60,335 nt of DNA from Patescibacteria group bacterium. Its GTDB lineage: Bacteria; Patescibacteriota; CPR2; UBA1875; JAMCYV01. Positions within the stretch are counted from its first letter, which is position 1; each line of letters begins with the position of its first letter. The position numbers were made by a program, and so were the translations under genes. Where the stretch lies: contig JAMCYV010000011.1 of assembly GCA_023473595.1 (NCBI GenBank), positions 1 to 60,335 of the forward strand. The letters are read 5' to 3'. The notes beneath the pieces are model-generated. The model was not told the DNA's origin. It did not search any database and saw nothing but the letters and a program-made list of their open reading frames with translations. Shown in pieces: positions 15,539-60,255 of this stretch.

Positions 15539-17920
<2,382 letters not shown>

Positions 17921-17926
17921 ATCCGC

Positions 17927-17980
17927 TGTCATTCTCGGGCTTGACCCGGGAATCCAGAGATTCCCGCTTTCGGGAATAAC
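17927..17980 (+). repeat. TGTCAT-hairpin dispersed element (copy a)
   Basis: tgtcattc, then hairpin attctcggg/cccgggaat, then a perfect attcccg-cttt-cgggaat hairpin. Lies 7 nt after the gyrB stop. Confidence 0.7.
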
Positions 17981-18136
17981 AAAAGAGGAATGAAAAGATA
18001 AAAATGAAAAGGAAAAAATACAACTAAAAATTCAAAATTATTCTTCGACCGGAGTGGAGAAGTACAATAATGTAGTTCTCGACAGGTTCGAACAATAATA
18101 GCTAGTAACTAGTGGCTAGCAACAAGAGATAAATAT

Positions 18137-20686
18137 ATGGCAGATAAATTAATTGAAGAAAATAATAATATTGGACAGCTAAAGCCTCAAGACATCTCGG
18201 AAGAGATGAAGAAGAGCTATCTTGATTATGCGATGAGTGTTATCGTCTCTCGAGCGCTTCCGGATGTCCGTGACGGCCTTAAGCCTGTTCACCGTCGGGT
18301 CCTTTACGCGATGAATAATATCGGTCTAAGGTCTACCGCCAAATTTAGGAAGTCGGCGACGATCGTCGGTGAGGTTTTAGGTAAATATCATCCCCATGGG
18401 GATGTTGCCGTTTACGATACAATCGTCCGAATGGCTCAGGATTTTTCTCTCCGATACCCGATGATCAACGGGCAGGGGAACTTCGGCTCGATGGACGGCG
18501 ACTCCGCAGCTGCGATGCGTTACACCGAAGCCAAGATGGCCAAAATTTCCGAAGAGATTTTGACAGACATCGATAAAGACACGGTTGATTTTGTGCCGAA
18601 CTACGACGGCACTTTAAAAGAGCCGGTCGTTCTTCCGTCAAAAGTCCCGACTTTGCTTTTAAACGGCCAAGAGGGTATTGCGGTCGGAATGGCGACCAAA
18701 ATCCCGCCTCATAACCTAGGGGAGCTTTGCGACGGTATTTGCCATTTGATTGATAATTCCGAAGCGACTATTGAGGATTTGATGCAGTTTGTTAAAGGGC
18801 CGGATTTTCCGACCGGCGGCGTTATCTACGATATTGCCGAGATTAAAAATGCCTACGGGACGGGAAAAGGCAGCATTATTACTCGGGCAGTAGCCGAAAT
18901 TGAGGAAGGCAAGAAAAACGATATGCGAATCGTTATTTCCGAGATCCCATATCAAGTAAACAAAGCCGGTCTTATTACTAAAATTGCAGAGCTAGTGAAA
19001 GAAAAGAAAATTCAAGGGATCGGCGACATTCGGGATGAATCAGATAGAAAGGACTCGGTCCGAATTATTATTGAGCTTAAAAAAGACGCCTATGCCAACA
19101 AGATTTTGAATCAGCTTTATAAGCTGACTCCGATGCAGACTTCTTATCATGTAAATATGCTGGCTTTGGTTGACGGCATTCAGCCTCAAGTCTTGACTCT
19201 TAAAATGATTTTTGAGGAATTCATTAAACACCGCCGAGTCGTTGTTCGCCGAAGGACAGAATTTGAGCTTAAGAAAGCCAAAGACAGGGCCCATATTTTA
19301 GAGGGGCTCTTAAAGGCGCTTAAAAATATCGACGCTGTTATTAAGACTATCAAAGCCTCGGCGACTAAAGAAATCGCCCATAAAAATTTAAAGAGCAAAT
19401 TTAAGCTGACGGCTATTCAGGCCCAGGCTATCCTCGATATGCGTCTTCAGGCTTTAGCCGGACTTGAAAGAAAGAAGATTGAAGATGAATACAAGGAACT
19501 TCAAAAAATCATTGCCGATTTGGAAGCAATTCTTAAAAACGAAAAAAAGATTTTAGACATTATTAAAAACGAACTTTTAGAAATTAAAAACAAATACGGC
19601 GATGAAAGAAGGACCAAAGTGATTAAAGGCAAGCTAGGGGAATTCACCGAAGCCGACTTGGTCCCGAATGAGACAGTCATTGTGGCTCTTACCAAAGGAA
19701 ATTATATTAAGCGAATTTTGGCTTCGACTTTCCGCCAGCAGCAGCGGGGCGGCAAGGGCGTCGTCGGAATGAGCACCAAAGAAGAGGATGTTTTGGAACA
19801 CATGGTCCTTACTCACAACCACGATGACATTATGTTCTTTACTAACCAGGGCCGGGTTTTCCGCTCCAAGGTTTATGAGATTCCGATGGCTTCAAGGATC
19901 GCCAAAGGTTCTCCAATTGTAAATTTCATCCAGCTTGCGCCGGAAGAAGTTGTAACCTCTGTCATTACCGTCACCAAGGATCAGAACGAAGGCGCTAAGT
20001 ACTTATTTATGTCGACTAAGAACGGAACGGTCAAGAAAGTGCCGATCGAACAATTTGCGAACGTCAGACGTTCAGGACTTATTGCGATTGGGCTTCAAAA
20101 AGGCGACCAGCTTCTCTGGGTCAAGGCGACAAACGGAAATGATGAAATTATTATGGCCTCAAAGTCTGGTCTCGCCAATAGATTCAAGGAAAAAGATGTC
20201 CGGCCAATGGGCCGAGCGGCTAGAGGCGTCCGGGGAATGCGACTCAAGAAAGACGATCAGCTGGTCGGTACCGATGTCATTATTCCAAAGGGCGAACTCT
20301 TGGTCATTATGGAAAACGGCTATGGGAAAAGGACGAATATCGATGAATTCAGTCCGCATCACAGAGGGGGAGTAGGAATGAAAGCAGCAGTTGTGACGCC
20401 AAAAACCGGAAATTTGTCAGATGTTAGAATTATTACCGAACTAAAAGAAGATCTAGTCGTGGTTTCGACTAAGGGCGTCATTATCCGCGTGCCTTTAGGC
20501 GGCATTTCCAAGATCGGGCGGGCGACTCAAGGGGTCCGAATTATGCGTCTCGGCGACGGCGACAAAGTCGCTTCTGTAACTTTGGTTGTGGAAGAAAAGA
20601 TTGAAGAAGAAGTGTCGAAAGAAGAAGGTTTAGGCGATTCTAAAGATAGCGACTTTAAAGCCCAAGAGCAAGAGAAGTTGATATAA
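18137..20686 (+). CDS. gyrA: DNA gyrase subunit A
   Basis: [36 protein letters not shown] (catalytic Tyr), C-terminal beta-pinwheel repeats, acidic tail. Confidence 0.97.
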
Positions 20687-20739
20687 GGAATTATTTTCGT
20701 TGTCATTGCGAGGAACGAAGCAATCTCTTTAATATTAGG

Positions 20740-20750: not shown

Positions 20751-21041
20751 ATGATGAGTAAACAATATTATATCTATATAATGACTAATAAAACTAATTC
20801 TGTACTTTATACAGGGGTAACTAATGATCTAAAAAAGAGGGTTTATCAGCATAGGGAAAAGTTAACAGAAGGTTTTACTAAAAAATATAACGTTAATAAA
20901 CTAGTTTATTTTGAGATTTTTAAAGACGTAAGAAGCGCTATATCAAGAGAGAAACAGATCAAAGGCGGGCCTCGGCAAAAGAAAATTGACCTCATTCAGT
21001 CTCTAAATCCAGATTGGAATGAACTTTATTTAGAGCTTTAG
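20751..21041 (+). CDS. GIY-YIG nuclease family protein (short, UPF0213/YhbQ-like)
   Basis: YYIYIMTNKTNSVLYTGVTNDLKKRVYQH ... REKQIKG, the GIY-YIG core. 96 aa. Confidence 0.85.
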   Translation: MMSKQYYIYIMTNKTNSVLYTGVTNDLKKRVYQHREKLTEGFTKKYNVNKLVYFEIFKDVRSAISREKQIKGGPRQKKIDLIQSLNPDWNELYLEL

Positions 21042-21378
21042 ATTGCTTCGTCGTCTCTCCTCGCAATGACAAAAAGTGTTAAGTCGGGTAAAAGGTTGCT
21101 ATAATAAAAGATAAAGTTAGAAAGCCATTTATAAATCTTACGGGGGAAATAAATGGCGGATTTACAAAAACTAGAACAGGAAATAAAGGTGATTGTGGAA
21201 AGGAACAAAAGGGGAAAGCTAAATAAATAGAAATAACCCTCCAGCCTCTTGACAGAAAATAGATAAAAATTTGACAATCAAATCTTCCTTTCTCTAATCC
21301 GCGCGAATAAGCGAAAGGTATACATTCTAAGAAAGTCAGAATATCATTTAGATGGTTTCTTAATCTTCGGATAGATAT

Positions 21379-25757: not shown

Positions 25758-25914
25758 AGCTCTTAGCCTTTTTTAAAGGCTAAAATCAAGTAAACAATTT
25801 CAACGAGTTTTTTAGTTTTCAAAACTAAAAACAAACTCTTTTTTGGAGAATTTTTCATCCTACGGATGACCAACCGAAGGTTGGCAGCCTAGTTTGAATT
25901 ACTTTCCATTCTTT

Positions 25915-25957
<43 letters not shown>

Positions 25958-26072
25958 TTAACACATGCAAGTCGTATGCATTTAGGTGCATGGCGAACTG
26001 GTGAGTAGTACATTGGAATCTGCCCCCATCACGGGGATAACCCGCCGAAAGGCGGGATAATACCCGATAGCC

Positions 26073-26207
26073 CCAGCACATATTTGTCATTAATTTGCTA
26101 ACAAAGACGATTCTTGCAAATCTTGTTCTATTACCTCAGGTGTAGAAATCTAGATCAAAATGGCTCATTCGCAAATTAATAAGTCTTTGATGACAAATAT
26201 GTGCTGG
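26073..26207 (+). other. 16S insertion 1 (V2 / helix 9-10 region), ORF-less long hairpin
   Basis: Perfect 18-bp closing stem ccagcacatatttgtcat(26073-26090)/atgacaaatatgtgctgg(26190-26207), between conserved gataatacccgatag and gtaaagttccggcgg. Confidence 0.85.
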
Positions 26208-26281
26208 GTAAAGTTCCGGCGGATGGGGAGGAGCCTTTGTCCTATCAGCTTGTTGGTGGGGTAACGGCCTACCAAGGCTAT

Positions 26282-26316
<35 letters not shown>

Positions 26317-26329
26317 TTGGGACTGAGAT

Positions 26330-26360
<31 letters not shown>

Positions 26361-26477
26361 AGGAATCTTCCGCAATGGGCGCAAGCCTGACGGAGCAACG
26401 CCGCGTGAAGGATGACGGCCTTCGGGTTGTAAACTTCTTTTCTCTGGGAAGATTATGACGGTACCAGAGGAATAAGC

Positions 26478-26521
<44 letters not shown>

Positions 26522-26685
26522 AAGCGTTATCCGGAATTACTGGGCGTAAAGAGTGTGTAGGTGGTGGTCTAAGTCAGATGTTAAATCTCTGGGCTTAACT
26601 CAGAGGCTGCATCTGATACTGGATTGCTAGAGACAAGAAGAGGTAAGCGGAATTCTCGGTGTAGCAGTTAAATGCGTAGATATCG

Positions 26686-26718
<33 letters not shown>

Positions 26719-26752
26719 TCTTGTTCTGACACTGAGACACGAAAGCGTGGGG

Positions 26753-26783
<31 letters not shown>

Positions 26784-26858
26784 CGCTGTAAACGATGCCT
26801 ACTGGCTGTGGGTTTCGACGACCTCGAGATCCGTAGCGAAGCTAACGCGTTAAGTAGG

Positions 26859-26926
<68 letters not shown>

Positions 26927-27023
26927 ACACGTGGTTTAATTCGACTCTAAGCGAAGAACCTTACCGAGGCTTGACATCCTGGGAACCCCGGCGAAAGTCG
27001 GGGGTGCCTTCGGGAACCCAGTG

Positions 27024-27066
<43 letters not shown>

Positions 27067-27139
27067 AGGTTAAGTCCTTTAACGAGCGCAACCCTTGCTC
27101 TGTGTTGTATGTTTCACAGAGGACTGCCCTGGTCAACGG

Positions 27140-27174
<35 letters not shown>

Positions 27175-27403
27175 TCTTACGCCTCGGGCTACACACATGT
27201 TACAATGGCTAGCACAATGGGTCGCGAACCCGCGAGGGGAAGCTAATCTCATCAAAACTAGTCCCAGTTCGGATTGAAGGCTGCAATTCGCCTTCATGAA
27301 GTCGGAATCGCTAGTAACCGTGGGTCAGCAATACCACGGTGAATACGTTCTCGGGTCTTGTACACACCGCCCGTCACACCACGAAAGTTGGTAACATCCG
27401 AAA

Positions 27404-27540
27404 CCCCGCACATATTTTCGATCCAAAACTGCCCAATTTGTCCTAAATATAGTTAGTTTTGATTTGGGCAAAGTGTGGCAAAAGTAAATTATAATTGCAA
27501 AGAGTTTTGGCAGGACAAATTATCGAAACTATGTGCGGGG
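27404..27540 (+). other. 16S insertion 2 (tip of helix 44), ORF-less extended helix
   Basis: ccccgcacat(27404-27413)/atgtgcgggg(27531-27540) closing stem, with further internal pairing (ttcgat/atcgaa, aatttgtcct/aggacaaatt). Confidence 0.85.
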
Positions 27541-27630
27541 TGAAGATGGGACCAGCGATTGGGGTGAAGTCGTAACAAGGTATCCGTAGGGGAATCTGCG
27601 GATGGATCACCTCCTTTCTAAAGGAGAAAT

Positions 27631-27939
27631 CCCGCACCTTTTAGCCCTTGTCGTGAGATTTGTGTAAAATAGCTTTATGTTCTATGTCTATGTATTAAAA
27701 AGCAAAAAAGATCAAAGCATTTACATCGGCTACACGACGGATTTAAGAGGTAGATTTGCTTCTCATAATAACGGTTCTAATAAATCAACCAAAGAAAAGA
27801 AACCATGGGAACTTATCTATTATGAAGCATTCAAAGACCGAACGTTGGCAAAGGAGAGAGAAATTAATCTGAAATATTATGGGAAATCTCTTGGACAACT
27901 TAAAAGAAGGATAGGTCTTTGAGGGTTAAAAGGTGCGGG
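27631..27939 (+). mobile_element. GIY-YIG cassette in the 16S 3' spacer, bounded by a 17-nt inverted repeat
   Basis: cccgcaccttttagccc(27631-27647) against gggttaaaaggtgcggg(27923-27939), 16/17 complementary. Confidence 0.6.
27677..27922 (+). CDS. GIY-YIG nuclease family protein (second copy)
   Basis: FYVYVLKSKKDQSIYIGYTTDLRGRFASHN ... KEREINLK. 81 aa. Confidence 0.8.
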   Translation: MFYVYVLKSKKDQSIYIGYTTDLRGRFASHNNGSNKSTKEKKPWELIYYEAFKDRTLAKEREINLKYYGKSLGQLKRRIGL

Positions 27940-27956
27940 ACAATCCTAGAGGTCGC

Positions 27957-34765: not shown

Positions 34766-36286
34766 ATGAATACAACTTTAGCGAAGAAGATTAAGATTTT
34801 ACCGAAAACTTCTGGAGTCTATCTTTACCGCGATAAAAACAAGCGTATTATTTATGTCGGAAAAGCGGTTAACCTAAAAAGCCGAGTCTCTTCGTATTTT
34901 CAAAAAACTCTGAATTATCTGCCGAAGACTGTTCAACTTATTAAAGAAATTGAGAGTTTAGAGTGGATTGAGACGGAGTCGGAGGTTGGGGCTCTTCTTC
35001 TTGAATCAGAACTTATAAAGAGATATCAGCCAAAGTTCAATGTTGAATGGCGGGATAATAAAAATTACCTCTTCCTTAAAATCCCTAAAGAGGATTTCCC
35101 AATGCCTGGGTTTGTTCGTTATCCGTCAGATGATAAGGCCACCTATTTTGGGCCGTATATCGATGCCACGGCTGTTCGTCAGGTTTTAAAGCTTCTTAGA
35201 AAAAGTTTCCCTTTCAGAAGCAAAGGCGATCTTAAAGCTAAAAAAGCTTGTCTTTATTATCACTTAAGGCAGTGTCCGGGAGTCTGTATTGAAGCCATTT
35301 CTAAAAGCGATTATCAGAAAAACATCCGTAAAATTATTCAGTTCTTTGAGGGCAAGAGTGAGAAGATGAAGAAAGAGTTTGAGAAAGAAATGAAAAAAGC
35401 GGCCAGGGAAAAAAATTTCGAAAAAGCGGCTTACTTCCGCAATGTCATCTTTAATTTAGAAAGAATCGACCAGATTCATATCTTAAAAAAAGAAGATTTC
35501 TCCAAGACCGACCATGCTCTTTATGGGCTTCAAAAGGAACTGGGATTAAAAAAAGTTCCCAGAAGAATCGAATGTTATGATATTTCCAATATCCAGGGGA
35601 AGTATGCCGTTGGCTCAATGGTTGTCTTTGAAAACGGTCTTCCGGCTAAAGAAAATTACCGCAAGTTTAAAGTAAAAAAAATAAAAGGACCGGATGATCC
35701 GGCGATGATCGGAGAAATTATAAAAAGGAGGTTTGAAAAAGATTGGGAGCTTCCTCAACTTATTGTTGTCGACGGAGGAAAACTTGACCCGCTAGAAAGA
35801 AAAAATGAATTTAAGGGATTAAAAATTAATATTCCTCTAATCGGCCTTGCTAAAAGATTTGAGGAGATATATACTGTCATCCCGACTAAAGTGGAAGGGT
35901 CTCTTGGTAAGTTTACCCTGAGCGAAGTCGAATGGGCCCGGGATGACAATCCACGTTTTAAGAAAATAATTTTGCCAAAGAATTCTGAAAGCCTCTATCT
36001 TTTACAGAGGATAAGGGATGAAGCCCATCGGTTTGCGATCACATACTTTAGAGAAACTCACAAGAAAGAGGCTAGAAAGTCAGGTTTGGATGATATATCT
36101 GGGATTGGGCCCAAGACTAAGAAAAAATTATTGAAAGAATTTGGTTCGATTGTCAAAATAAAAGAGGCAAGTGAGTCGAAAATTGCTAAAATAATAGGAG
36201 AGAAGAAGGCTAAAATTATTAAACTGTCATTCCGGGCTGCCGAAAGTTGGCCTTTTCCTCCAGATTCTGAATCTAGTTCAGAATGA
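34766..36286 (+). CDS. uvrC: excinuclease ABC subunit C (short form) with repeat-derived segments
   Basis: N-terminal GIY-YIG GVYLYRDKNKRIIYVGKAVNLKSRV, RIECYDISN, LLQRIRDEAHRFAI, C-terminal HhH GIGPKTKKKLLKEFGS. Confidence 0.93.
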   Translation: MNTTLAKKIKILPKTSGVYLYRDKNKRIIYVGKAVNLKSRVSSYFQKTLNYLPKTVQLIKEIESLEWIETESEVGALLLESELIKRYQPKFNVEWRDNKNYLFLKIPKEDFPMPGFVRYPSDDKATYFGPYIDATAVRQVLKLLRKSFPFRSKGDLKAKKACLYYHLRQCPGVCIEAISKSDYQKNIRKIIQFFEGKSEKMKKEFEKEMKKAAREKNFEKAAYFRNVIFNLERIDQIHILKKEDFSKTDHALYGLQKELGLKKVPRRIECYDISNIQGKYAVGSMVVFENGLPAKENYRKFKVKKIKGPDDPAMIGEIIKRRFEKDWELPQLIVVDGGKLDPLERKNEFKGLKINIPLIGLAKRFEEIYTVIPTKVEGSLGKFTLSEVEWARDDNPRFKKIILPKNSESLYLLQRIRDEAHRFAITYFRETHKKEARKSGLDDISGIGPKTKKKLLKEFGSIVKIKEASESKIAKIIGEKKAKIIKLSFRAAESWPFPPDSESSSE

Positions 36287-36288
36287 CA
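36225..36288 (+). repeat. TGTCAT element forming the last ~20 codons and the stop of uvrC
   Basis: tgtcattccg at the left end, ttctgaa-tctag-ttcagaa hairpin, then cagaatgaca at the right end (termini 9/10 inverse). Confidence 0.65.
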
Positions 36289-36435
36289 ATTAGTAAAATG
36301 AAAAATTTCGAAGAAATCGAAAAGGAGATAAGGAAGAAAGAGGAGAAAAAAATCCGGAAAAAAGATAAAATCTCCGGAAAAAGCGTTTTTCTCTTAAAAA
36401 AACTGATCGAAAGGAAAAAGAAAAAACGATCTTAA
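36283..36435 (+). CDS. possible 50-aa lysine-rich small protein, coupled to uvrC
   Basis: ATGA overlap with the uvrC stop. MTISKMKNFEEIEKEIRKKEEKKIRKKDKISGKSVFLLKKLIERKKKKRS. Below the ORF-track size cut-off. Confidence 0.3.
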   Translation: MTISKMKNFEEIEKEIRKKEEKKIRKKDKISGKSVFLLKKLIERKKKKRS

Positions 36436-43764: not shown

Positions 43765-43812
43765 TGTCATTCTCGCCCTTCTTTGTCATCCCCGCGAAAG
43801 CGGGGATCCAGA
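43765..43812 (+). repeat. TGTCAT-hairpin element (copy d, two heads)
   Basis: tgtcattctcgcccttctt, then tgtcatcc, then a perfect 8-bp hairpin atccccgc-gaaa-gcggggat. Confidence 0.65.
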
Positions 43813-43962
43813 AACTCCGGAAGGCTAAACTCCAGCAGGAATCCAGAAAACAATTAAAAATAGCCTCAAAAAGGTATTTTTTTGGTATAATGTGGCTGTG
43901 GAATAAAACCAGCAGAAATTTAGGGAGGTTGATGCCCAGTATATTTAATATTAAGGAAAATA

Positions 43963-46757: not shown

Positions 46758-46784
46758 ATTCCTTGGTTTGCGACAAGGAATGAC
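46758..46784 (-). repeat. TGTCAT-hairpin element in inverse orientation
   Basis: attccttg-gtttgcga-caaggaat followed by gaca. Confidence 0.5.
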
Positions 46785-46852
46785 AAGGGATAGAAATTAA
46801 AAGCACAGATTAAATAGTTTTGTTTTTTACTTTTAAATTTTGAATTTTTAAC

Positions 46853-50894: not shown

Positions 50895-51006
50895 CGTCAT
50901 CCTGAACTTGCCTGCCCGATCGTAGTCAGGCGAAGGCGGGATTCAGGACCCACAACTATCTTTTTTAGATTAAATAATAGATTCCAAATCAAGTTTGGAA
51001 TGACAA
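50895..51006 (+). repeat. TGTCAT-type element with inverse termini (copy e)
   Basis: gtcatcctgaa...ttcaggac hairpin, then attccaaa-tcaag-tttggaat followed by gaca. Fills the gatC-gatA spacer. Confidence 0.6.
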
Positions 51007-51016
51007 GTTAGAGCTT

Positions 51017-52498
51017 ATGAAACTTAATGAGTTAGACATAGTACAGGCGGCGGAGGGGCTAAAGAAAGGCGAGTTTAGTTCGGTTGATTTGACGCAGGTT
51101 TGTTTGGAGGTGATAAAAAAGTTGAATCCGGAAATCAATGCTTTTATTACTATTACAGAAGATTTGGCTTTAAATCAGGCGAAAGAGAGCGATGCCAGGC
51201 GGAAAATGGGAAACTCAAGGGGTATTCTGGATGGGATTCCGGTAGCTATAAAAGACAATATTGCTGTGAAAGATTACCCGACAACAGCCGCTTCGAAGAT
51301 TTTGGAAAATTATATTACTGTTGAAGACGCCTTTGTTATAAAAAAACTCAAAGAAGCTGGGGCAGTCATTTTAGGGAAGACTAATCTTGATGAATTCGCC
51401 TGCGGCGGCTCGACAGAGACTTCTTACTTTGAGACGACTAAAAATCCTATTGATCATTCAAGGGTTCCGGGCGGTTCTTCTGGTGGCTCGGCAGCGGCTG
51501 TGGCAGCCGACATGTGTATTTATGCAATTGGTTCGGACACCGGCGGATCAATCCGCCAGCCAGCTTCATATTGCGGGATTGTGGGCTTAAAGCCGACTTA
51601 TGGGGCGGTCTCACGGAATGGGCTTTTTGCGATGGCTTCAAGTTTGGATCAAATTGGCCCTTTAACTAAAACTGTCGAAGATGCTTTCATTGTTTTAAAA
51701 GAATTAGCAAAATATGATGAAAAAGACAGTACTTCGAATAAAAAAGGCGAGGAAACTATTCAAAAAATTGTTGATTTGAAGGGGGTTAAAGGGCTTAAAG
51801 TAGGCATTTTAAAGCAAGGAAAGGTAGCAAACGTTCAAGCAGGAATAAAAAATGATTTGGAGAAGGCGGTTCAAAAATTAAAAGCGGCGGGGGCTCAAGT
51901 TACCGAATTAAATCTTCCGATTCTCGATTATGCCTTGGCAGTCTATTACATCTTGATGCCGGTAGAAGTGAGTTCGAATTTAGGCCGTTATGACGGGATA
52001 AAGTACGGTTACTCCGTAGCCCTCCTTCGCGACGCTACGGAAGGGCAAGCAAGTAGCAAGGAAACAGTAGCAAGGAATTTGGAGGAAGTTTACTTCAAGA
52101 CGAGAGCGGAAGGCTTCGGAGATGAAGTAAAGCGCCGAATTATGCTGGGAGCTTATGCCTCTTCGGCAGGATATTTTGACCAGTATTATTTAAAAGCCCA
52201 AAAAGTGAGAGCGATTATCAAGAAAGAAATTGATGATGCTTTCAAAAAATTCGACTGTCTTCTTTTACCGACAACACCGACGACAGCCTTTAAAATCAGC
52301 GAGAAAACCAAAGACCCAATCATGATGTATTTGGAAGACATATTTACGGTACCGGCGAATATTGCCGGGATTCCTGGAATTAGTGTTCCTTTTGGCAAGG
52401 AAGGGAATCTGCCTTTTGGAATTCAAGTTTTAGGGCCAGAGTTCGGTGAAGAGAAACTATTGAATGTAGCCAAGGCTTTGGAGGAAGCAGATGGGTAA
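51017..52498 (+). CDS. gatA: Asp/Glu-tRNA amidotransferase subunit A
   Basis: Amidase signature GGSSGGSAAAVA, GSDTGGSIRQPA, EGFGDEVKRRIMLG. Confidence 0.96.
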   Translation: MKLNELDIVQAAEGLKKGEFSSVDLTQVCLEVIKKLNPEINAFITITEDLALNQAKESDARRKMGNSRGILDGIPVAIKDNIAVKDYPTTAASKILENYITVEDAFVIKKLKEAGAVILGKTNLDEFACGGSTETSYFETTKNPIDHSRVPGGSSGGSAAAVAADMCIYAIGSDTGGSIRQPASYCGIVGLKPTYGAVSRNGLFAMASSLDQIGPLTKTVEDAFIVLKELAKYDEKDSTSNKKGEETIQKIVDLKGVKGLKVGILKQGKVANVQAGIKNDLEKAVQKLKAAGAQVTELNLPILDYALAVYYILMPVEVSSNLGRYDGIKYGYSVALLRDATEGQASSKETVARNLEEVYFKTRAEGFGDEVKRRIMLGAYASSAGYFDQYYLKAQKVRAIIKKEIDDAFKKFDCLLLPTTPTTAFKISEKTKDPIMMYLEDIFTVPANIAGIPGISVPFGKEGNLPFGIQVLGPEFGEEKLLNVAKALEEADG

Positions 52499-53704: not shown

Positions 53705-54193
53705 ATGACCAAAGGAAAAATGCCTGAAAAACTTTACAACTCGCTTAAGTCTTATCTTGATCAAGATGAAAAGATGATTGACATCCTAAGAGAGACTTTT
53801 GTTCCGCACTTCGACTTTAGATGGTTAGTGCTTACAAATAAAAGCGTTATTATAGCCATAAGAGAGCTTTTTAACTATAAATTCGTCGATTTCCACTTGA
53901 GAAACATAGACATTAATTTAGAATATGGGTTTTTATACGATCAGCTCGAATTTGGGTCGATGGGCAAAAATTATAGAGCTCAATTTTACGTTTTTCAAAG
54001 AGGGAAAACGCTCGATTTCTTTAAAAAGATGAAAGAGCAAGCCAAAATAATAAGTGAAGGTAAAGAAAAGAAGAAACCGCCTTCTGACCCGATAGAATTA
54101 ATAAAGGAATTAACTAAACTTTTAAAAAGAGGTATCATAACAAAGCAGGAATTTGAAAAGAAGAAGGAAGAATTATTAAAAAAGATAAAATGA
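53705..54193 (+). CDS. PH-like domain protein with C-terminal SHOCT motif
   Basis: C-terminal LIKELTKLLKRGIITKQEFEKKKEELL is SHOCT-like. Confidence 0.6.
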   Translation: MTKGKMPEKLYNSLKSYLDQDEKMIDILRETFVPHFDFRWLVLTNKSVIIAIRELFNYKFVDFHLRNIDINLEYGFLYDQLEFGSMGKNYRAQFYVFQRGKTLDFFKKMKEQAKIISEGKEKKKPPSDPIELIKELTKLLKRGIITKQEFEKKKEELLKKIK

Positions 54194-55668
54194 CAAAATA
54201 CGAAACGGTAATAGGATTGGAGATCCATATTCAGCTTAAGACAAAGTCGAAGATGTTCTGCCGCTGTGATAATTTTTCAGTGAAAGCCGAACCAAATACA
54301 AACATTTGTCCGGTCTGTTTAGGGATGCCCGGGACTCTTCCAAAAGCTAATAAGAAAGCGATTGAATGGCTTTATCTTTTAGGTATTGCTTTAAATGGAA
54401 AAATCAGAGACGGTTTCCAATTTGAAAGGAAAAACTACTATTATCCGGATCTGCCAAAAGCTTACCAGATAACCAGTTCTACTGATAAGCCGGTCGACGG
54501 CGGTTTTCTGGAATTAGAAATTGACAGAGAAACTAGAAAAGTTGAGTTAGACCATATTCACCTTGAAGAAGACGCCGGAAAACTCGTTCATGGCGGAGAT
54601 GATTATAGCTTAGTTGATTTAAACAGGGCAGGGACGCCTCTTATAGAACTTGTTACTAAGCCTGATATTCGTTCGCCAAAAGAAGCAAAGACCTTTGTCC
54701 AAAGGTTAAGAGCGATTGTTAGATATTTGGGTATCTCTTATGCCAATATGGAAGAAGGAAATTTAAGGTGTGATGCTAATATCTCTCTAAGGAAAGCGGG
54801 AGGGAAACTTGGAGAGAAAGTAGAAATTAAAAATCTTAACTCTTTTAAAATGCTTGAGCGAGCTTTGGAATATGAAGAGAAAAGGCAGTCAGAAATCCTA
54901 GAACTGAACAAAAAAATTATTCAAGAAACAAGAGGTTGGGATGACGCTAAAGGGAAGACTCTGCCCCAAAGATTAAAAGAGGAAACTCAGGATTATCGCT
55001 ATTTTCCGGAACCGGATCTGCCGCCTATCTTGGTAGGGAAAACGGAAAAAAACGGTGAATTTTTAATAGGCGAAATTAAAAATAAATTACCAGAATTACC
55101 AGCTGAAAAAGAAAAGAGATTTGAAAAAGAATACGGACTATCTAGGGCTGATGCCAAGATTCTAACCGCAGAAATAGAAATTGCTAGGTTTTTTGAACAA
55201 ACAGTCGGTGCCATTGAAGAAACCGATAAATCTGCTGAAGAAATGAGAAGGTATGCTAAAAAAGCGGCCAATTGGATCTTAACCGAGCTTTTTTATAAGA
55301 TGAAAGAAAAAGACGAAGATATTACTAAGATTAAGATTATTCCTTTTCACTTAGCTTCTTTAATTGATCTTATAGAGAGCGGTCAAATCTCCGGGAAAAT
55401 TGCCAAAGAGATCTTTAACGAAATGTATGAGACGGGGAAAGAACCGGAAAATATCATTAAGGAAAAAGGCTTGGAGCAAATTACTGGCCTAGAAGAACTA
55501 GAGAAAATAATTAAAGAAGTTATAAGTAATAATCCAAAATCGGTTGAAGACTATAAAAAAGGCAAAGAGGCGGCTTTGGGGTATCTTGTTGGTCAAGTAA
55601 TGAAAGAGACCAAAGGGAAAGCAAATCCACAAGCTGTTAACGAGATTTTAAAACAAAAATTAGTTTAA
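54190..55668 (+). CDS. gatB: Asp/Glu-tRNA amidotransferase subunit B
   Basis: YETVIGLEIHIQL, CPVCLGMPGTLP, NRAGTPLIE, GNLRCDANISL, C-terminal GatB/YqeY domain. Confidence 0.96.
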   Translation: MTKYETVIGLEIHIQLKTKSKMFCRCDNFSVKAEPNTNICPVCLGMPGTLPKANKKAIEWLYLLGIALNGKIRDGFQFERKNYYYPDLPKAYQITSSTDKPVDGGFLELEIDRETRKVELDHIHLEEDAGKLVHGGDDYSLVDLNRAGTPLIELVTKPDIRSPKEAKTFVQRLRAIVRYLGISYANMEEGNLRCDANISLRKAGGKLGEKVEIKNLNSFKMLERALEYEEKRQSEILELNKKIIQETRGWDDAKGKTLPQRLKEETQDYRYFPEPDLPPILVGKTEKNGEFLIGEIKNKLPELPAEKEKRFEKEYGLSRADAKILTAEIEIARFFEQTVGAIEETDKSAEEMRRYAKKAANWILTELFYKMKEKDEDITKIKIIPFHLASLIDLIESGQISGKIAKEIFNEMYETGKEPENIIKEKGLEQITGLEELEKIIKEVISNNPKSVEDYKKGKEAALGYLVGQVMKETKGKANPQAVNEILKQKLV

Positions 55669-55701
55669 TTTCTACTTTTTGGCAGCAAAACCCTCCTTTT
55701 T

Positions 55702-55726
55702 TGTCATCCTGAACTTGATTCAGGAT
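55702..55726 (+). repeat. TGTCAT-hairpin element (copy f)
   Basis: tgtc, then a perfect 8-bp hairpin atcctgaa-cttga-ttcaggat. Lies 34 nt after the gatB stop. Confidence 0.75.
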
Positions 55727-56009
55727 CTATAGTTCCATTATTTACTTTCTGGCAGCAGAAAGCTTCCAGGCTTGTGTCGTTCCAGATAGTAGTCGAAGAA
55801 TCTGTTTTCATTCTACTTTTGAGTGACCAAAAGTAGCAAAAGTCACCGACGACGCTCAAAAATAGAGTAAGACTAATAAAAATTTCTCGCTTAAAACCTG
55901 AACCACTTCGTTAAAGCAGGATTTTATCCCGACTAAAGCCGGGATCGCTCGAGATTTTTAAGTCTTACTAGCTATTTTCTCGCTATTGTCGGGTTATGTT
56001 AGAATAAGA

Positions 56010-56732: not shown

Positions 56733-59700
56733 ATGACAGATTTTGTTCACTTACATGTTCATACCCATTACTCGCTTCTAGATGGAATGTGCAAGATCCC
56801 TGATCTTTTGGATAAGGCAAAAGGGCTTGGGATGGATGCTCTTGCTATTACCGACCATGGAGTTATGTACGGGGCAATTGAATTTTACCAGGAAGCGAAA
56901 AAAAGGGACATGAAGCCGATAATCGGCTTCGAGGCCTACATCGCTCCTAGAAAACTTACCGATAAAACCCCAAGAGTGGACGGCCGGCCTAGCCACCTGA
57001 CTCTCTTAGCTCAAAATTTAGATGGCTACAAAAACTTAATCAAGCTCACGACTATCGCTCATCTAGAAGGCTACTATTATCGGCCGAGAATTGATAAAGA
57101 AGTTTTAAAAGAAAACTCCAAGGGGATTATCGCTCTTTCAGGGTGCGCTAACGGTGAAATCGCTAGATACCTTTTAGAAGGGGATTATGATTCGGCCAAA
57201 AAAACAGCTTCAGAATTTAAAGAAATTTTTGAAAAAGGCAATTTTTACTTAGAGATGCAGTTCGTTCAGAAGGAGTGGCCGGATCAAATTAAAATAAATG
57301 AGGGGTTAAAAAAAATCGCTCATGAATTAGATTTGCCTTTGGTAGCGACTTCGGATGTTCATTATATAAATAAAGATGATGCCGAAGCCCAAGACGTTCT
57401 TCTATGTCTCCAAACCGGCACTTTTGCTGATGATGAGGACCGAATGAGAATGCCGGGCGATTGGTCGCTTCTTTACTCCGAAATAAAAGAATGTTTCAAA
57501 GATATGCCCGAAGCCCTAAAAAATACCGTAAAAATTGCAGAAAAATGCAATCTAGAACTAGAACTTGGCAAATATCAGATCCCAATTTTTGAAGTCCCAA
57601 AAGGCAAAACCACTAAATTTTACTTAGAAGAACTGGTTCATACAGGCTTAAAAGAAAAATATAAAAATATTACCCGAGAGATCAAAGAGAGGTGTGAATA
57701 TGAACTCTCAATTATTGAAAAAATGGGCTTTGAAGGCTACTTCCTTGTCGTCTGGGATTATGTCAAATGGGCCAAAGACAATGGGATAGTTGTGGGGCCG
57801 GGAAGAGGATCAGCCGCTGGAAGCATAGTCGCTTATGCCTTAGATATTACCGAAATCGACCCTTTGCCTTATGATCTTCTCTTTGAAAGGTTTTTAAACC
57901 CCGATAGAATCTCTATGCCTGATATTGATATGGATTTTGCCGATGATAGAAGAGATGAGGTTCTAAAATATGTCACCGAAAAATACGGCCGAGATCATGT
58001 AGCCCAAATTATTACCTTTGGGACAATGAAGGCCAGGAATGCGATCCGTGATACCGGCCGAGTTTTGGGCTTTAGTTATAACGAAGTGGATGCTATTGCC
58101 AAAATGGTGCCAGAAGTCATTAATATCAAATTAAAAGACGCTTTAGACCAATCGCCGGATTTGAAGGCAGAGTACAGAAATGACCCGAAGGTTAAGCATT
58201 TAATAGATATTGCAATGAGGCTAGAAGGGGTTACTAGACACGCCTCGACTCATGCTGCCGGGGTCATTATTTCTAAGGATCCCTTGATAGAACAGGTCCC
58301 GCTTCAAAAAAGCACTCGTGGTGACGATGTTATAAATACCCAATATGAGATGGATCCGTTAGAAAGCTTGGGCCTTATTAAAATGGACTTTCTAGGGCTT
58401 TCCAATCTAACAATCATCAAAAATGCCTTGAGGATTATTAAAAAAGTTTATGGGGAAGAGATTGATATAGATCATCTGTCATTGGATGATAAAAAAACTT
58501 ACGAACTTCTTTCCAGGGGTGATACGACGGGCGTGTTCCAGTTTGAATCGTCCGGTATGAAGAGGTACTTGAGAGACTTAAAGCCGTCAAATTTTGAAGA
58601 CATTACAGCAATGGGCGCGCTTTACCGTCCGGGGCCCTTAAATTCAGGGATGGTTTCTGAATTTATCGACCGAAAACACGGCCGCAAGAAAATTAGCTAT
58701 CCACATCCAATAATGGAACATGCGTTAAGTAATACCTACGGGGTTATTGTCTACCAGGAGCAGGTTATCCAGCTTTCAAAAGATATGGCTGGTTTTACTG
58801 GTGGCGAGGCTGATAACTTGAGAAAAGCGGTGGGTAAGAAGATTCAGAAGCTCATGAAGGAGCAGAGACAGAAATTCATTGAAGGCTGTGTTAAAAATGG
58901 ATTAACTAAAAAGTTGGCAGAGGATACATTTCTCTCAATCGAAAAGTTTGCCGAGTATGGGTTTAATAAATCCCATGCAGCTTGTTATGCATTAATTTCT
59001 TACCAGACGGCTTATCTTAAGGCTTACTTTCCATCAGCTTTTATGGCCGCCCTTATGACAAGCGACTATTCGAATATCGATAAAATCGCCAGCGAAATCG
59101 ATGAATGCCGCAAAATCGGGATTGAAGTCCTTCCTCCAGATGTAAACGAAAGTTTTGCCGAGTTTGCGGTAGTCAAAGACACAGGAAAAATAAGATTTGG
59201 CCTTAAGGCAGTGAAAAATGTTGGTGAAGGAATCATTAAAGCTATTGAAGAAGCAAGGAAGACTGGCGGCAAATTCAAAAGCATCGATGATTTTGTAAGA
59301 AGAGTCGATGCTAAGGAAATTAATAAAAAGGTAATGGAATCCTTGATAAAATGCGGCACTTTCGATTCCTTGGCCGAGAGAGAAGATCTCCTCTTTAATC
59401 TGGAAAAGATTCTAGGGTTTGCTACTAAAGCTCAAAAGGACCAGTCGTCGGGCCAGATCGACCTTTTTGGCGGTAACGGTTACCATTTGCCTGGTTTTGA
59501 AATTATAAAGTCCAAGCAGAGACTGAGGAAAAAAGAAAAGCTTGATTGGGAAAAAGAGCTTTTAGGCATTTATATTTCCGACCATCCTTTGAAGGAATAT
59601 TCAGGCATTTTAGAAAAAGAAGGGGCGATAAAATGCTCAGAGCTTTTAGAACATTTAGATGATAAGGAAGTGAAAGTCGGCGGAGTCATTACTTCTGTAC

Positions 59701-60182
59701 TGAAGAAATATACTAGAAACAAAGAAGCAATGCTTTTTATAAGGCTTGAAGATATGGTTTCAAGCGTAGAGCTCATTGTTTTCCCCAAGACCCTTCAAAA
59801 ATATCCTACTAGGTTTAGAGAAGGCAATATTGTCGTAGTTCAGGGTAATATCAATACCAAAGATAACGAGCCAAAGGTTTTAGTTGATTCAATAAGGGAA
59901 CTGGCCCTAGAGCAAAAAACTTATGAGACAGCTCCGACGGATGATATTGTCATTAGAGAGGCTGATTCGATTAAAATATATGTTCCCAAAGGAGTCGGAC
60001 AGCAAAAGCTTGAGCTTTTAAAGGAAATTCTTGCTAAAAATAAGGGGGACATAGAGACTTTTGTTTTTATTCCGAACGGTGAAGAGACTAAGAAAGTGAA
60101 GTTGCCTTTTGGGACGAACTTTCAAGAAGATATGGTTCAAGAAATTGAAAATTTGTTTAAAAGAGAAATAGGCGTTTCTTAA
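56733..60182 (+). CDS. dnaE: DNA polymerase III alpha subunit
   Basis: PHP domain FVHLHVHTHYSLLDG, GPGRGSAAGSIVAY, PDIDMDF, FNKSHAACYA, C-terminal OB fold. Confidence 0.97.
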   Translation: MTDFVHLHVHTHYSLLDGMCKIPDLLDKAKGLGMDALAITDHGVMYGAIEFYQEAKKRDMKPIIGFEAYIAPRKLTDKTPRVDGRPSHLTLLAQNLDGYKNLIKLTTIAHLEGYYYRPRIDKEVLKENSKGIIALSGCANGEIARYLLEGDYDSAKKTASEFKEIFEKGNFYLEMQFVQKEWPDQIKINEGLKKIAHELDLPLVATSDVHYINKDDAEAQDVLLCLQTGTFADDEDRMRMPGDWSLLYSEIKECFKDMPEALKNTVKIAEKCNLELELGKYQIPIFEVPKGKTTKFYLEELVHTGLKEKYKNITREIKERCEYELSIIEKMGFEGYFLVVWDYVKWAKDNGIVVGPGRGSAAGSIVAYALDITEIDPLPYDLLFERFLNPDRISMPDIDMDFADDRRDEVLKYVTEKYGRDHVAQIITFGTMKARNAIRDTGRVLGFSYNEVDAIAKMVPEVINIKLKDALDQSPDLKAEYRNDPKVKHLIDIAMRLEGVTRHASTHAAGVIISKDPLIEQVPLQKSTRGDDVINTQYEMDPLESLGLIKMDFLGLSNLTIIKNALRIIKKVYGEEIDIDHLSLDDKKTYELLSRGDTTGVFQFESSGMKRYLRDLKPSNFEDITAMGALYRPGPLNSGMVSEFIDRKHGRKKISYPHPIMEHALSNTYGVIVYQEQVIQLSKDMAGFTGGEADNLRKAVGKKIQKLMKEQRQKFIEGCVKNGLTKKLAEDTFLSIEKFAEYGFNKSHAACYALISYQTAYLKAYFPSAFMAALMTSDYSNIDKIASEIDECRKIGIEVLPPDVNESFAEFAVVKDTGKIRFGLKAVKNVGEGIIKAIEEARKTGGKFKSIDDFVRRVDAKEINKKVMESLIKCGTFDSLAEREDLLFNLEKILGFATKAQKDQSSGQIDLFGGNGYHLPGFEIIKSKQRLRKKEKLDWEKELLGIYISDHPLKEYSGILEKEGAIKCSELLEHLDDKEVKVGGVITSVLKKYTRNKEAMLFIRLEDMVSSVELIVFPKTLQKYPTRFREGNIVVVQGNINTKDNEPKVLVDSIRELALEQKTYETAPTDDIVIREADSIKIYVPKGVGQQKLELLKEILAKNKGDIETFVFIPNGEETKKVKLPFGTNFQEDMVQEIENLFKREIGVS

Positions 60183-60213
60183 ACATAAGTTGTCTCGAAC
60201 CTTAGATTTCTAT

Positions 60214-60238
60214 TGTCATTCCGGACTTGATCCGGAAT
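60214..60238 (+). repeat. TGTCAT-hairpin element (copy g)
   Basis: tgtc, then a perfect 8-bp hairpin attccgga-cttga-tccggaat. Lies 32 nt after the dnaE stop. Confidence 0.75.
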
Positions 60239-60255
60239 CCAAACCTAAAAATTAC

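Follow-up and report, generated by a model that had tools for sequence, protein, structure and literature searches.

Judged by its sequence, the family of dispersed TGTCAT hairpins described here belongs to the published family of CGTC-tagged REPs and Ssn-related motifs (SRM), which includes the Neisseria dRS3/NTS repeats. The repeats are neither a new RNA motif nor a new class of MITE; they were published in 2013 and the corresponding enzyme in 2025. Taken as a whole, the best explanation for the hairpins is that they are SRM that are linked to small nucleases of the Ssn type and that occur both in IS-like cassettes and as non-autonomous derivatives, and we regard this explanation as very probable. 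The DNA that we analyzed is positions 1-60,335 of contig JAMCYV010000011.1 from a Patescibacteria group bacterium (GCA_023473595.1), and we refer to this whole stretch of 60,335 nt as the window. The assembly that holds it comprises 774,855 bp in 33 contigs, of which the window is contig 1, with a GC content of 38.6% and an estimated completeness of 84.6%. A crude longest-ORF gene call gives a coding share of 88%.

The NTS of Neisseria, CGTCATTCCCGCGMAVGCGGGAATCYRG, is an oriented form of dRS3, and a broader set of "Ssn-related motifs" has been described along with it (Chenal et al., Nat Commun 2025, PMC11893778). These motifs flank ssnA, a gene for a 94-aa single-domain GIY-YIG protein of family cd10448. 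SsnA binds the hairpin solely as top-strand ssDNA, cuts a few nucleotides 5' of the tag, and is inactive on dsDNA and RNA. The identity of the loop is dispensable for SsnA; exchanging the palindrome while keeping the hairpin abolishes its activity (PMC11893778).

Hairpin copies in the window and in the genome

By reading the sequence directly, we found a TGTCAT hairpin element or a recognizable variant at each of the nine sites named in a preliminary description of this DNA. The window contains 14 occurrences of the octamer TGTCATYC, compared to an expectation of 2.19, and none of 100 shuffles reached this count. Of the copies that were all said to start with TGTCAT(T/C)C and to run into a hairpin, those at 20701 and 21071 are of an ATTGC...GCAAT variant, and the element at 43765 is a truncated head only. 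Several copies had also been said to lie close behind the stop codons of large genes, and this is the case for gyrB (7 nt), gyrA (15 nt), dnaE (32 nt) and gatB (34 nt), all of which we verified with Pfam.

The focal hairpin, TGTC-ATCCTGAA-CTTGA-TTCAGGAT-C, is found on the + strand at 55702-55726, downstream of gatB (54190-55668). Annotated as 55699..55732, it scores 43.9 bits (E = 2.3e-9) with the covariance model described below, R1, and its calculated folding energy as ssDNA is -6.4 kcal/mol. The dnaE-side hairpin, TGTC-ATTCCGGA-CTTGA-TCCGGAAT-C, lies on the same strand at 60214-60238 (annotated as 60211..60244), downstream of dnaE (56733-60182), with a score of 43.2 bits and a folding energy of -8.5 kcal/mol. 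As ssDNA, both hairpins fold with a z score of about -3.9. They share the CTTGA loop and an 8-bp stem and differ at stem positions 3, 5 and 7, each change being compensated in the 3' arm, in agreement with the preliminary description.

The remaining copies are more varied. Upstream of gatA (51017-52498) lies a convergent dimer at 50895..51008, which consists of a long-loop copy on the + strand (approximately 50895-50952), with a GC-rich inner hairpin inside its CTTGA loop, and a short CTTGA copy on the - strand (50975-51008). Single copies are found at 46758..46785 on the - strand (ATTCCTTG-tcgcaaac-CAAGGAAT, the copy denoted 46784) and at 43765..43813 on the + strand, where a truncated GTCAT head (43765-43783) is followed by an NTS-like copy, GTCATCCCCGCGAAAGCGGGGATCCAG (43781-43813, the copy denoted 43784), that fits the published SRM pattern. 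The gene uvrC (34766-36286) is associated with two elements. A convergent dimer at 36222..36291, with a weak + copy and a strong - copy, overlaps its last codons and stop, and a decayed tag-outward pair, GTCATCCCG...CGGGATGAC, sits in frame within it at 35875..35948, where it was found by pattern only and missed by the model. Behind gyrB (15545-17920) lies a + copy (17924-17959) with a decayed inverse partner (17954-17984); the model gives this pair (17924..17984) E values of 0.004 and 0.79. Within gyrB itself, a decayed head and stem on the - strand (17652..17672) resembles the ATCCCGAGCTTGTCGAGGGAT type that flanks the ssn gene on contig C20.

The copy behind gyrB is one of five with the form ATYCTCGGG-CTTGA-CCCGGGRAT (17924-17959; C7:8227-8262, C25:24182-24217, C26:5763-5798 and C17:5392-5427), and all five carry a T.G pair at stem position 5. 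Since a T.G pair corresponds to a C.A mismatch on the opposite strand, this fits the folding of one specific DNA strand.

To place these copies in a genomic context, we counted GTCAT tags followed within 24 nt by a perfect stem of at least 7 bp. The genome has 62 of them, whereas 30 dinucleotide shuffles averaged 1.0 and never gave more than 6. We then built R1 from 52 short copies (alignment A2) and scanned the 775-kb genome and related genomes, which was the check proposed in the preliminary description. Many further copies were returned: 114 matches at E<=1 in this genome, 95 of them at E<0.01, and up to at least 146 matches in a relative. Adding long-loop copies found by pattern to the covariance-model set brings the total to approximately 110, and the density in this 0.78-Mb genome is approximately one copy per 7-8 kb.

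In the 52 aligned copies, GTCAT and the 3' ATC are invariant, and the base preceding GTC is mostly T (consensus TTGTCAT). Five of the eight stem pairs have changed on both sides, which amounts to 99 cells, a value that none of 500 shuffles reached; controls in which the alignment was slid collapse. The covariation that had been reported from two copies thus stays beyond chance in the larger alignment. Since the 52 seeds were picked for perfect stems, the percentage of paired positions was fixed in advance, and the information lies solely in the variety of pair types.

The claim that structure rather than sequence is maintained has to be qualified, as the stems belong to a small number of recurrent classes. 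One class combines ATYC with TGAA, CGGA, CAAA or CTGG and has the loop CTTGA, another has ATTCCCGC or ATTCCTGC with a GNRA loop, and a third has ATTCTGG with loops of 14 or 25 nt. Approximately 20 genomic copies have the form GTCATTCCCGC-GNRA-GCGGGAATC. Further hairpin types include ATTGC...GCAAT and ATCCCGAG..., and loops of 28, 39, 44 and 51 nt occur, the 44- and 51-nt forms having a conserved insert inside the CTTGA loop. Because the stem classes recur and because exchange of the palindrome costs SsnA its activity (PMC11893778), the covariation looks like subfamily diversification, plausibly together with cognate Ssn paralogues, rather than free compensatory drift.

The long loops are modular. 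The same 23-nt insert (CT-attcctttagaaatataatcagt-TGA, approximately 10 copies) is found in the CTTGA loop across different stems, and an alternative GC-rich inner hairpin of approximately 30 nt (6 copies) is likewise found in the CTTGA loop of differing stems. Sites with long loops include 50895-50952 in the window as well as C6:138, C10:41161, C19:20851, C30:2789, C5:4146, C11:32704 and others. Such shared inserts suggest loop-targeted insertion or recombination between copies.

Neighboring copies show a strong preference for one geometry, with 23 convergent, 2 tandem and no divergent arrangements. In each of the 23 gene-less dimers the tags face outward, which is the same geometry as that of the nuclease cassettes described below. 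In the 13 convergent dimers confirmed by the covariance model, the two tails touch or overlap, with a spacing of -6 to +11 nt, and dimer tails often make a palindromic junction such as ATCTTAAGAT.

Most copies (84/110) lie outside ORFs of at least 100 aa; 26/110 lie inside such ORFs, 13 on each strand, as assigned by a crude longest-ORF caller, with seven of the proteins verified by Pfam. Pfam domain matches run through the inserted peptides (e.g. VILATGRRPESKDSSQAGMT), indicating that these are genuine in-frame inserts. A Pfam domain spans the insert in a MiaB-like radical-SAM enzyme, the MPG glycosylase, DinB and the prepilin peptidase. In TruB the hairpin insert splits TruB_N, and in a PPDK-like enzyme the insert falls between the PPDK_N and PEP-utilizers domains. 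We compared one such site, a loop of the 3-methyladenine DNA glycosylase MPG (C11:33394-34083), with that of its orthologues L083-L093. The loop is empty in four relatives, and in other orthologues it holds different SRM-like peptides, e.g. CHSRESGNPE and LCHSD.... These different fills of a single loop point to repeated independent insertion at what would be an insertion hot spot.

Ssn nuclease genes and their flanking hairpins

A search of the genome with PF01541 gave 13 GIY-YIG matches, one of which is UvrC. Six of the matching ORFs encode 95-118 aa and group tightly, with 43-57% identity to the first member (alignment A1) and PF01541 as their sole Pfam match. As a reference, we used the NTS-flanked 94-aa protein found in two 2.17-Mb N. 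gonorrhoeae records. A tblastn search of a plasmid collection with one of the Ssn-like proteins matched both records at 56.7% identity, and the gonococcal gene has CGTCATTCCCGCTCAGGCGGGAATCC directly 3' of it and NTS copies around its locus. The six proteins are 43-57% identical to this gonococcal SsnA orthologue, with E values from about 7e-26 to 7e-37. Chenal et al. count proteins with E<1e-10 as Ssn, and by this standard all six are Ssn. NCBIfam and PDB sequence searches with the small GIY-YIG proteins returned nothing specific.

The member in the window is a 96-aa single-domain GIY-YIG nuclease gene, ssn (20751..21041, + strand), that scores 69 bits with PF01541 and shares 46% identity with the gonococcal SsnA orthologue (E = 4e-30). 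It sits exactly between two copies of the hairpin. The left one, GTC-ATTGC-GAGGAACGAA-GCAAT-C (20698..20730, + strand), begins behind gyrA (18137-20686), and the right one, also of the ATTGC type, is inverse (21040..21074, - strand) and overlaps the ssn stop codon. This arrangement supports the suggestion, one of three made in the preliminary description, that the hairpins are recognized by the small nucleases whose genes lie nearby. The same arrangement is seen at all six ssn genes: a + hairpin lies upstream, a - hairpin overlaps or follows the stop codon, and the tags point outward. For the cassettes on C15, C10 and C23, both flanking hairpins are confirmed by the covariance model, and 288-290 nt separate them. 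Hairpin types vary from cassette to cassette. A search for target-site duplications around these cassettes gave nothing consistent.

The other six GIY-YIG ORFs, of approximately 80 aa, are 29-37% identical to gonococcal SsnA (E of 1e-5 to 1e-9), and we did not count them as Ssn. They have no GTCAT hairpins and adjoin tRNA genes or the 16S gene. One of them (27677-27922, 81 aa, 29% identical to gonococcal SsnA) directly follows the 3' end of the 16S gene and is bracketed by a 19-nt inverted repeat (27630-27648 / 27922-27940, 95% complementary), with the GTCAT hairpin absent. The 16S gene itself (25911-27617) spans 1707 nt compared to a model of 1533 positions, indicating approximately 170 nt of insertion. 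The other five lie between tRNA or tRNA-like genes (C4:11660-12567, C8:14706-14951, C15:8938-9195 and C29:986-1186), and some of the tRNA-like sequences beside them look interrupted by GC-rich hairpins. A pattern search for a link between these hairpins and the GC-rich long-loop insert matched only the six SRM-loop copies.

We next compared hairpins and nuclease genes across 41 Patescibacteria genomes. With a cutoff of E<=0.001, the covariance model matches between 0 and at least 146 sites per genome, with counts saturating near 150. Members of a single genus can differ greatly: genus g5 has counts of 7, 43 and 105, and genus g13 has counts of 5 and 0. Genes of the Ssn class (E<=1e-25) number 0-8 per genome, some of them with internal stops. 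The number of hairpins rises with the number of Ssn genes (Spearman rho of 0.81, uncorrected for phylogeny), and ssn is present in 14 of the 15 genomes with at least 20 hairpins and in none of the nine without hairpins.

The association extends to other phyla. Among 80 loci that encode the closest homologues of the window Ssn, a generic tag-plus-hairpin scan, run without a shuffle control, finds the gene flanked by a GTC-tagged hairpin at 67, and at 43 of these on both sides. These loci span Cyanobacteria, Nitrospirota, Chloroflexota, Ignavibacteria, Planctomycetota, Omnitrophota, Patescibacteria and others. R1 gave few matches at them because it models ATYC stems only. Most of their hairpins have the form GTC-ATTGC-GAG...GAA-GCAAT-C, the type that flanks the window ssn, which indicates that the protein clade and the hairpin type travel together.

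Proposed mechanism and alternative explanations

In anatomy, each element consists of an oriented GTC tag and a 7-9-bp palindrome that starts with ATYC and encloses a short loop, followed by an ATC tail at the 3' end. The hairpin is expected to form in ssDNA, and by analogy with SsnA an Ssn protein is predicted to bind its top strand and to cut a few nucleotides 5' of the tag. Homologues and gene adjacency are thus the basis on which we predict cleavage, strand specificity and the pairing of paralogues with hairpins in this genome. The ssn cassettes would be IS-like autonomous units, and the dimers and singletons would be non-autonomous derivatives of them that spread through nicking by Ssn followed by host repair or replication. 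As a side effect, Ssn may cut hairpin-bearing ssDNA, for example DNA that enters the cell via ComEC and DprA, which would parallel the ssDNA restriction of transformation in Neisseria.

More tentatively, we propose a specific version of this mechanism that we consider possible, though on balance doubtful. Ssn cassettes and tag-outward dimers may form a working autonomous/non-autonomous pair in which a single-strand-specific GIY-YIG nuclease replaces a transposase, each paralogue has its own hairpin subfamily, and elements have repeatedly entered, in frame, the same permissive loops of MPG, TruB, DinB, a UvrD-like helicase, UvrC and GyrB.

The alternative that survives best is that the hairpins are host-domesticated marks. 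Hairpins and Ssn paralogues would then be selected as an ssDNA restriction code that limits recombination around marked genes, and the copies would have spread by slow duplication or recombination and not through Ssn mobility. N. meningitidis SsnA does reduce transformation by NTS-bearing DNA approximately 5-fold (PMC11893778), the genome encodes ssDNA uptake functions (ComEC, DprA, a ComF-like protein and a prepilin peptidase), and core genes such as gyrB, gyrA, gatB and dnaE are flanked by hairpins. We nevertheless think this alternative rather unlikely. The wide swings in copy number within genera, such as g5, the stop codons within some relatives' ssn copies, the in-frame insertions in essential enzymes, including the independent fills of one MPG loop, and the IS-like geometry of the cassettes all look like selfish spread and decay.

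A second alternative is that the hairpins act at the RNA level as factor-independent terminators, as 3' stabilizers against exonucleases or as RNase processing sites, in which case the covariation would keep an RNA stem. Several copies do lie in sense orientation 7-35 nt past stop codons, and of the 24 single copies that have an upstream stop no more than 60 nt away, 21 point the same way as the gene. Many REPs have also been suggested to be transcribed (PMC3733652). The orientation bias, however, stems partly from cassette ends that were counted as single copies. An intrinsic terminator requires a GC-rich hairpin followed by a U/T tract, and we rejected this candidate because the sequence has no T run after the hairpins at 55726, 60238 and 17957; the lack of U tracts had already been remarked upon. 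An Rfam 15 scan of the window matched only 16S rRNA and tRNAs. Furthermore, approximately a quarter of the copies lie inside ORFs, equally on both strands, the two copies of a dimer face opposite ways, RNA is left untouched by the homologous nuclease (PMC11893778), and across genomes the abundance of the family follows that of a gene for a DNA nuclease. An RNA-level function is therefore improbable, and the suggestion that these are RNA-processing or stability elements finds no support here.

The remaining alternative, a classical REP/REPIN mobilized by a RAYT (an IS200/IS605-type Y1 transposase), we reject as extremely improbable, since, even though the oriented tag and hairpin, the dimers and the high copy number resemble REP/BIME/REPIN and the genome has one Y1_Tnp-like ORF (C8:9729-10400), the tag is GTC and not GTAG, that single Y1 ORF lacks GTCAT hairpins and is flanked by an unrelated palindrome of its own, TTACAAAGGACGGACCTTTGTAA (7 genomic copies), the GTCAT hairpins precisely flank six GIY-YIG genes, and no RAYT flanked by CGTC repeats was found in the 2013 survey (PMC3733652).

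The IS200/Y1-transposase-like ORF encodes 223 aa, and at its locus (C8:9440-10440) the TTACAAAGGACGGACCTTTGTAA palindrome both flanks the ORF and sits in frame within it, accounting for six of the seven genomic copies. This ORF and its palindrome may be a small, separate REP/RAYT-like pair.

Returning to the Ssn-linked explanation, the idea that the hairpins are a REP-like family is borne out by the oriented tag and hairpin, the dimers and the approximately 100 genomic copies. Four features go beyond both published papers, namely that most copies escape the published pattern, that there are several stem and loop subfamilies, that the tags of all 23 gene-less dimers face outward, and that approximately a quarter of the copies lie within ORFs, in frame in housekeeping genes where this was checked. 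Six paralogues in one genome and modular long loops are further local features. Six natural nuclease-hairpin pairs, together with long-loop variants, in a single small genome offer a specificity panel for the ssDNA-cutting tools that have been proposed from Ssn. Mobilization by Ssn could be tested at the in-frame copies that lie in genes for repair and replication, whose sites are filled in some relatives and empty in others. If the autonomous/non-autonomous pair is real, it would be one of the main sources of lineage-specific insertions in proteins, which are typical of these reduced genomes.

Comparison with known systems

The REP/REPIN-RAYT system resembles the family described here in its combination of an ssDNA hairpin with an oriented tag, in having an enzyme gene between inverted copies, and in having gene-less dimers as the spreading unit. 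The two differ in the tag (GTAG there, GTC here) and in the enzyme, since an HUH Y1 transposase can rejoin strands whereas a GIY-YIG nuclease only cuts. The separate palindrome of this genome's single Y1 gene further distinguishes the two.

The Rickettsia palindromic elements (Ogata et al. 2000), as they are cited in PMC3733652, are likewise palindromes that are tolerated in frame in housekeeping proteins of a reduced-genome bacterium. In that account, most classical RPEs are longer, and RPE-4 and RPE-6 are the only ones equated with CGTC repeats. The host lineage is also a different one.

The closest match at the level of the repeats is provided by the "CGTC-tagged REPs," under which name the repeats later linked to SsnA were catalogued (Di Nocera, De Gregorio & Rocco, BMC Genomics 2013, PMC3733652). 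These have 8-9-bp stems, 4-5-nt loops and a 3-nt tail and occur mostly as dimers of one orientation. Neisseria CGTC-1 is dRS3, and R. conorii CGTC-1 and CGTC-4 are RPE-6 and RPE-4. Intragenic in-frame units concentrate in replication and repair genes, and no dedicated transposase was identified (PMC3733652). The family described here has the same GTC tag and 3-nt tail, stems of 7-9 bp, CTTGA or GNRA loops, one dominant dimer orientation, and heterodimers. In-frame copies are found here in UvrC, a UvrD-like helicase, DinB, GyrB, MPG and TruB, and TruB is interrupted both here and in R. conorii (PMC3733652). Among the differences, GTC is mostly preceded by T here and not by C, the long-loop variants exceed the stated loop of 4-5 nt, and Patescibacteria are not among the five phyla listed in PMC3733652. 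The 2013 paper also identified no dedicated enzyme, whereas here, as in Chenal et al., an Ssn gene lies between the repeats.

At the level of the nuclease and its motif, the closest match is the Ssn/SRM system (PMC11893778). The published SRM pattern, HGTCWYN(0-2)YYVSBRHN(0-5)WNVSBRGN(0-2)RNCYNB, is a search heuristic that was built from 29 genomes. We searched for it in the genome and found 22 sites compared to 1.2 in shuffles, an enrichment of approximately 18-fold that covers approximately a fifth of the family. In the window, the copies at 17927 and 43784 match this pattern and the focal copy does not. Given that the pattern misses most of the copies here, the reach of the family has probably been under-counted.

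The Ssn/SRM system differs from ours in several respects. Its main text does not include the phylum of our host, a Patescibacteria genome of 0.78 Mb. Here there are six paralogues with differing types of flanking hairpin, only approximately 20% of copies fit the published degenerate pattern, some variants have loops of 28-51 nt, and approximately a quarter of copies are intragenic compared to 2% in N. meningitidis. The likenesses are nonetheless extensive. Both systems have an oriented (C)GTCAT tag, a palindrome of approximately 8 bp, a loop of 4-5 nt and a 3' C, as can be seen by comparing the window copy at 43784, TGTCATCCCCGCGAAAGCGGGGATCCAG, with the published NTS, CGTCATTCCCGCGMAVGCGGGAATCYRG. 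Both have a single-domain GIY-YIG gene of approximately 95 aa with the motif on both flanks, both have many gene-less copies (hundreds in Neisseria), and in both the abundance of the motif is tied to the presence of the gene.
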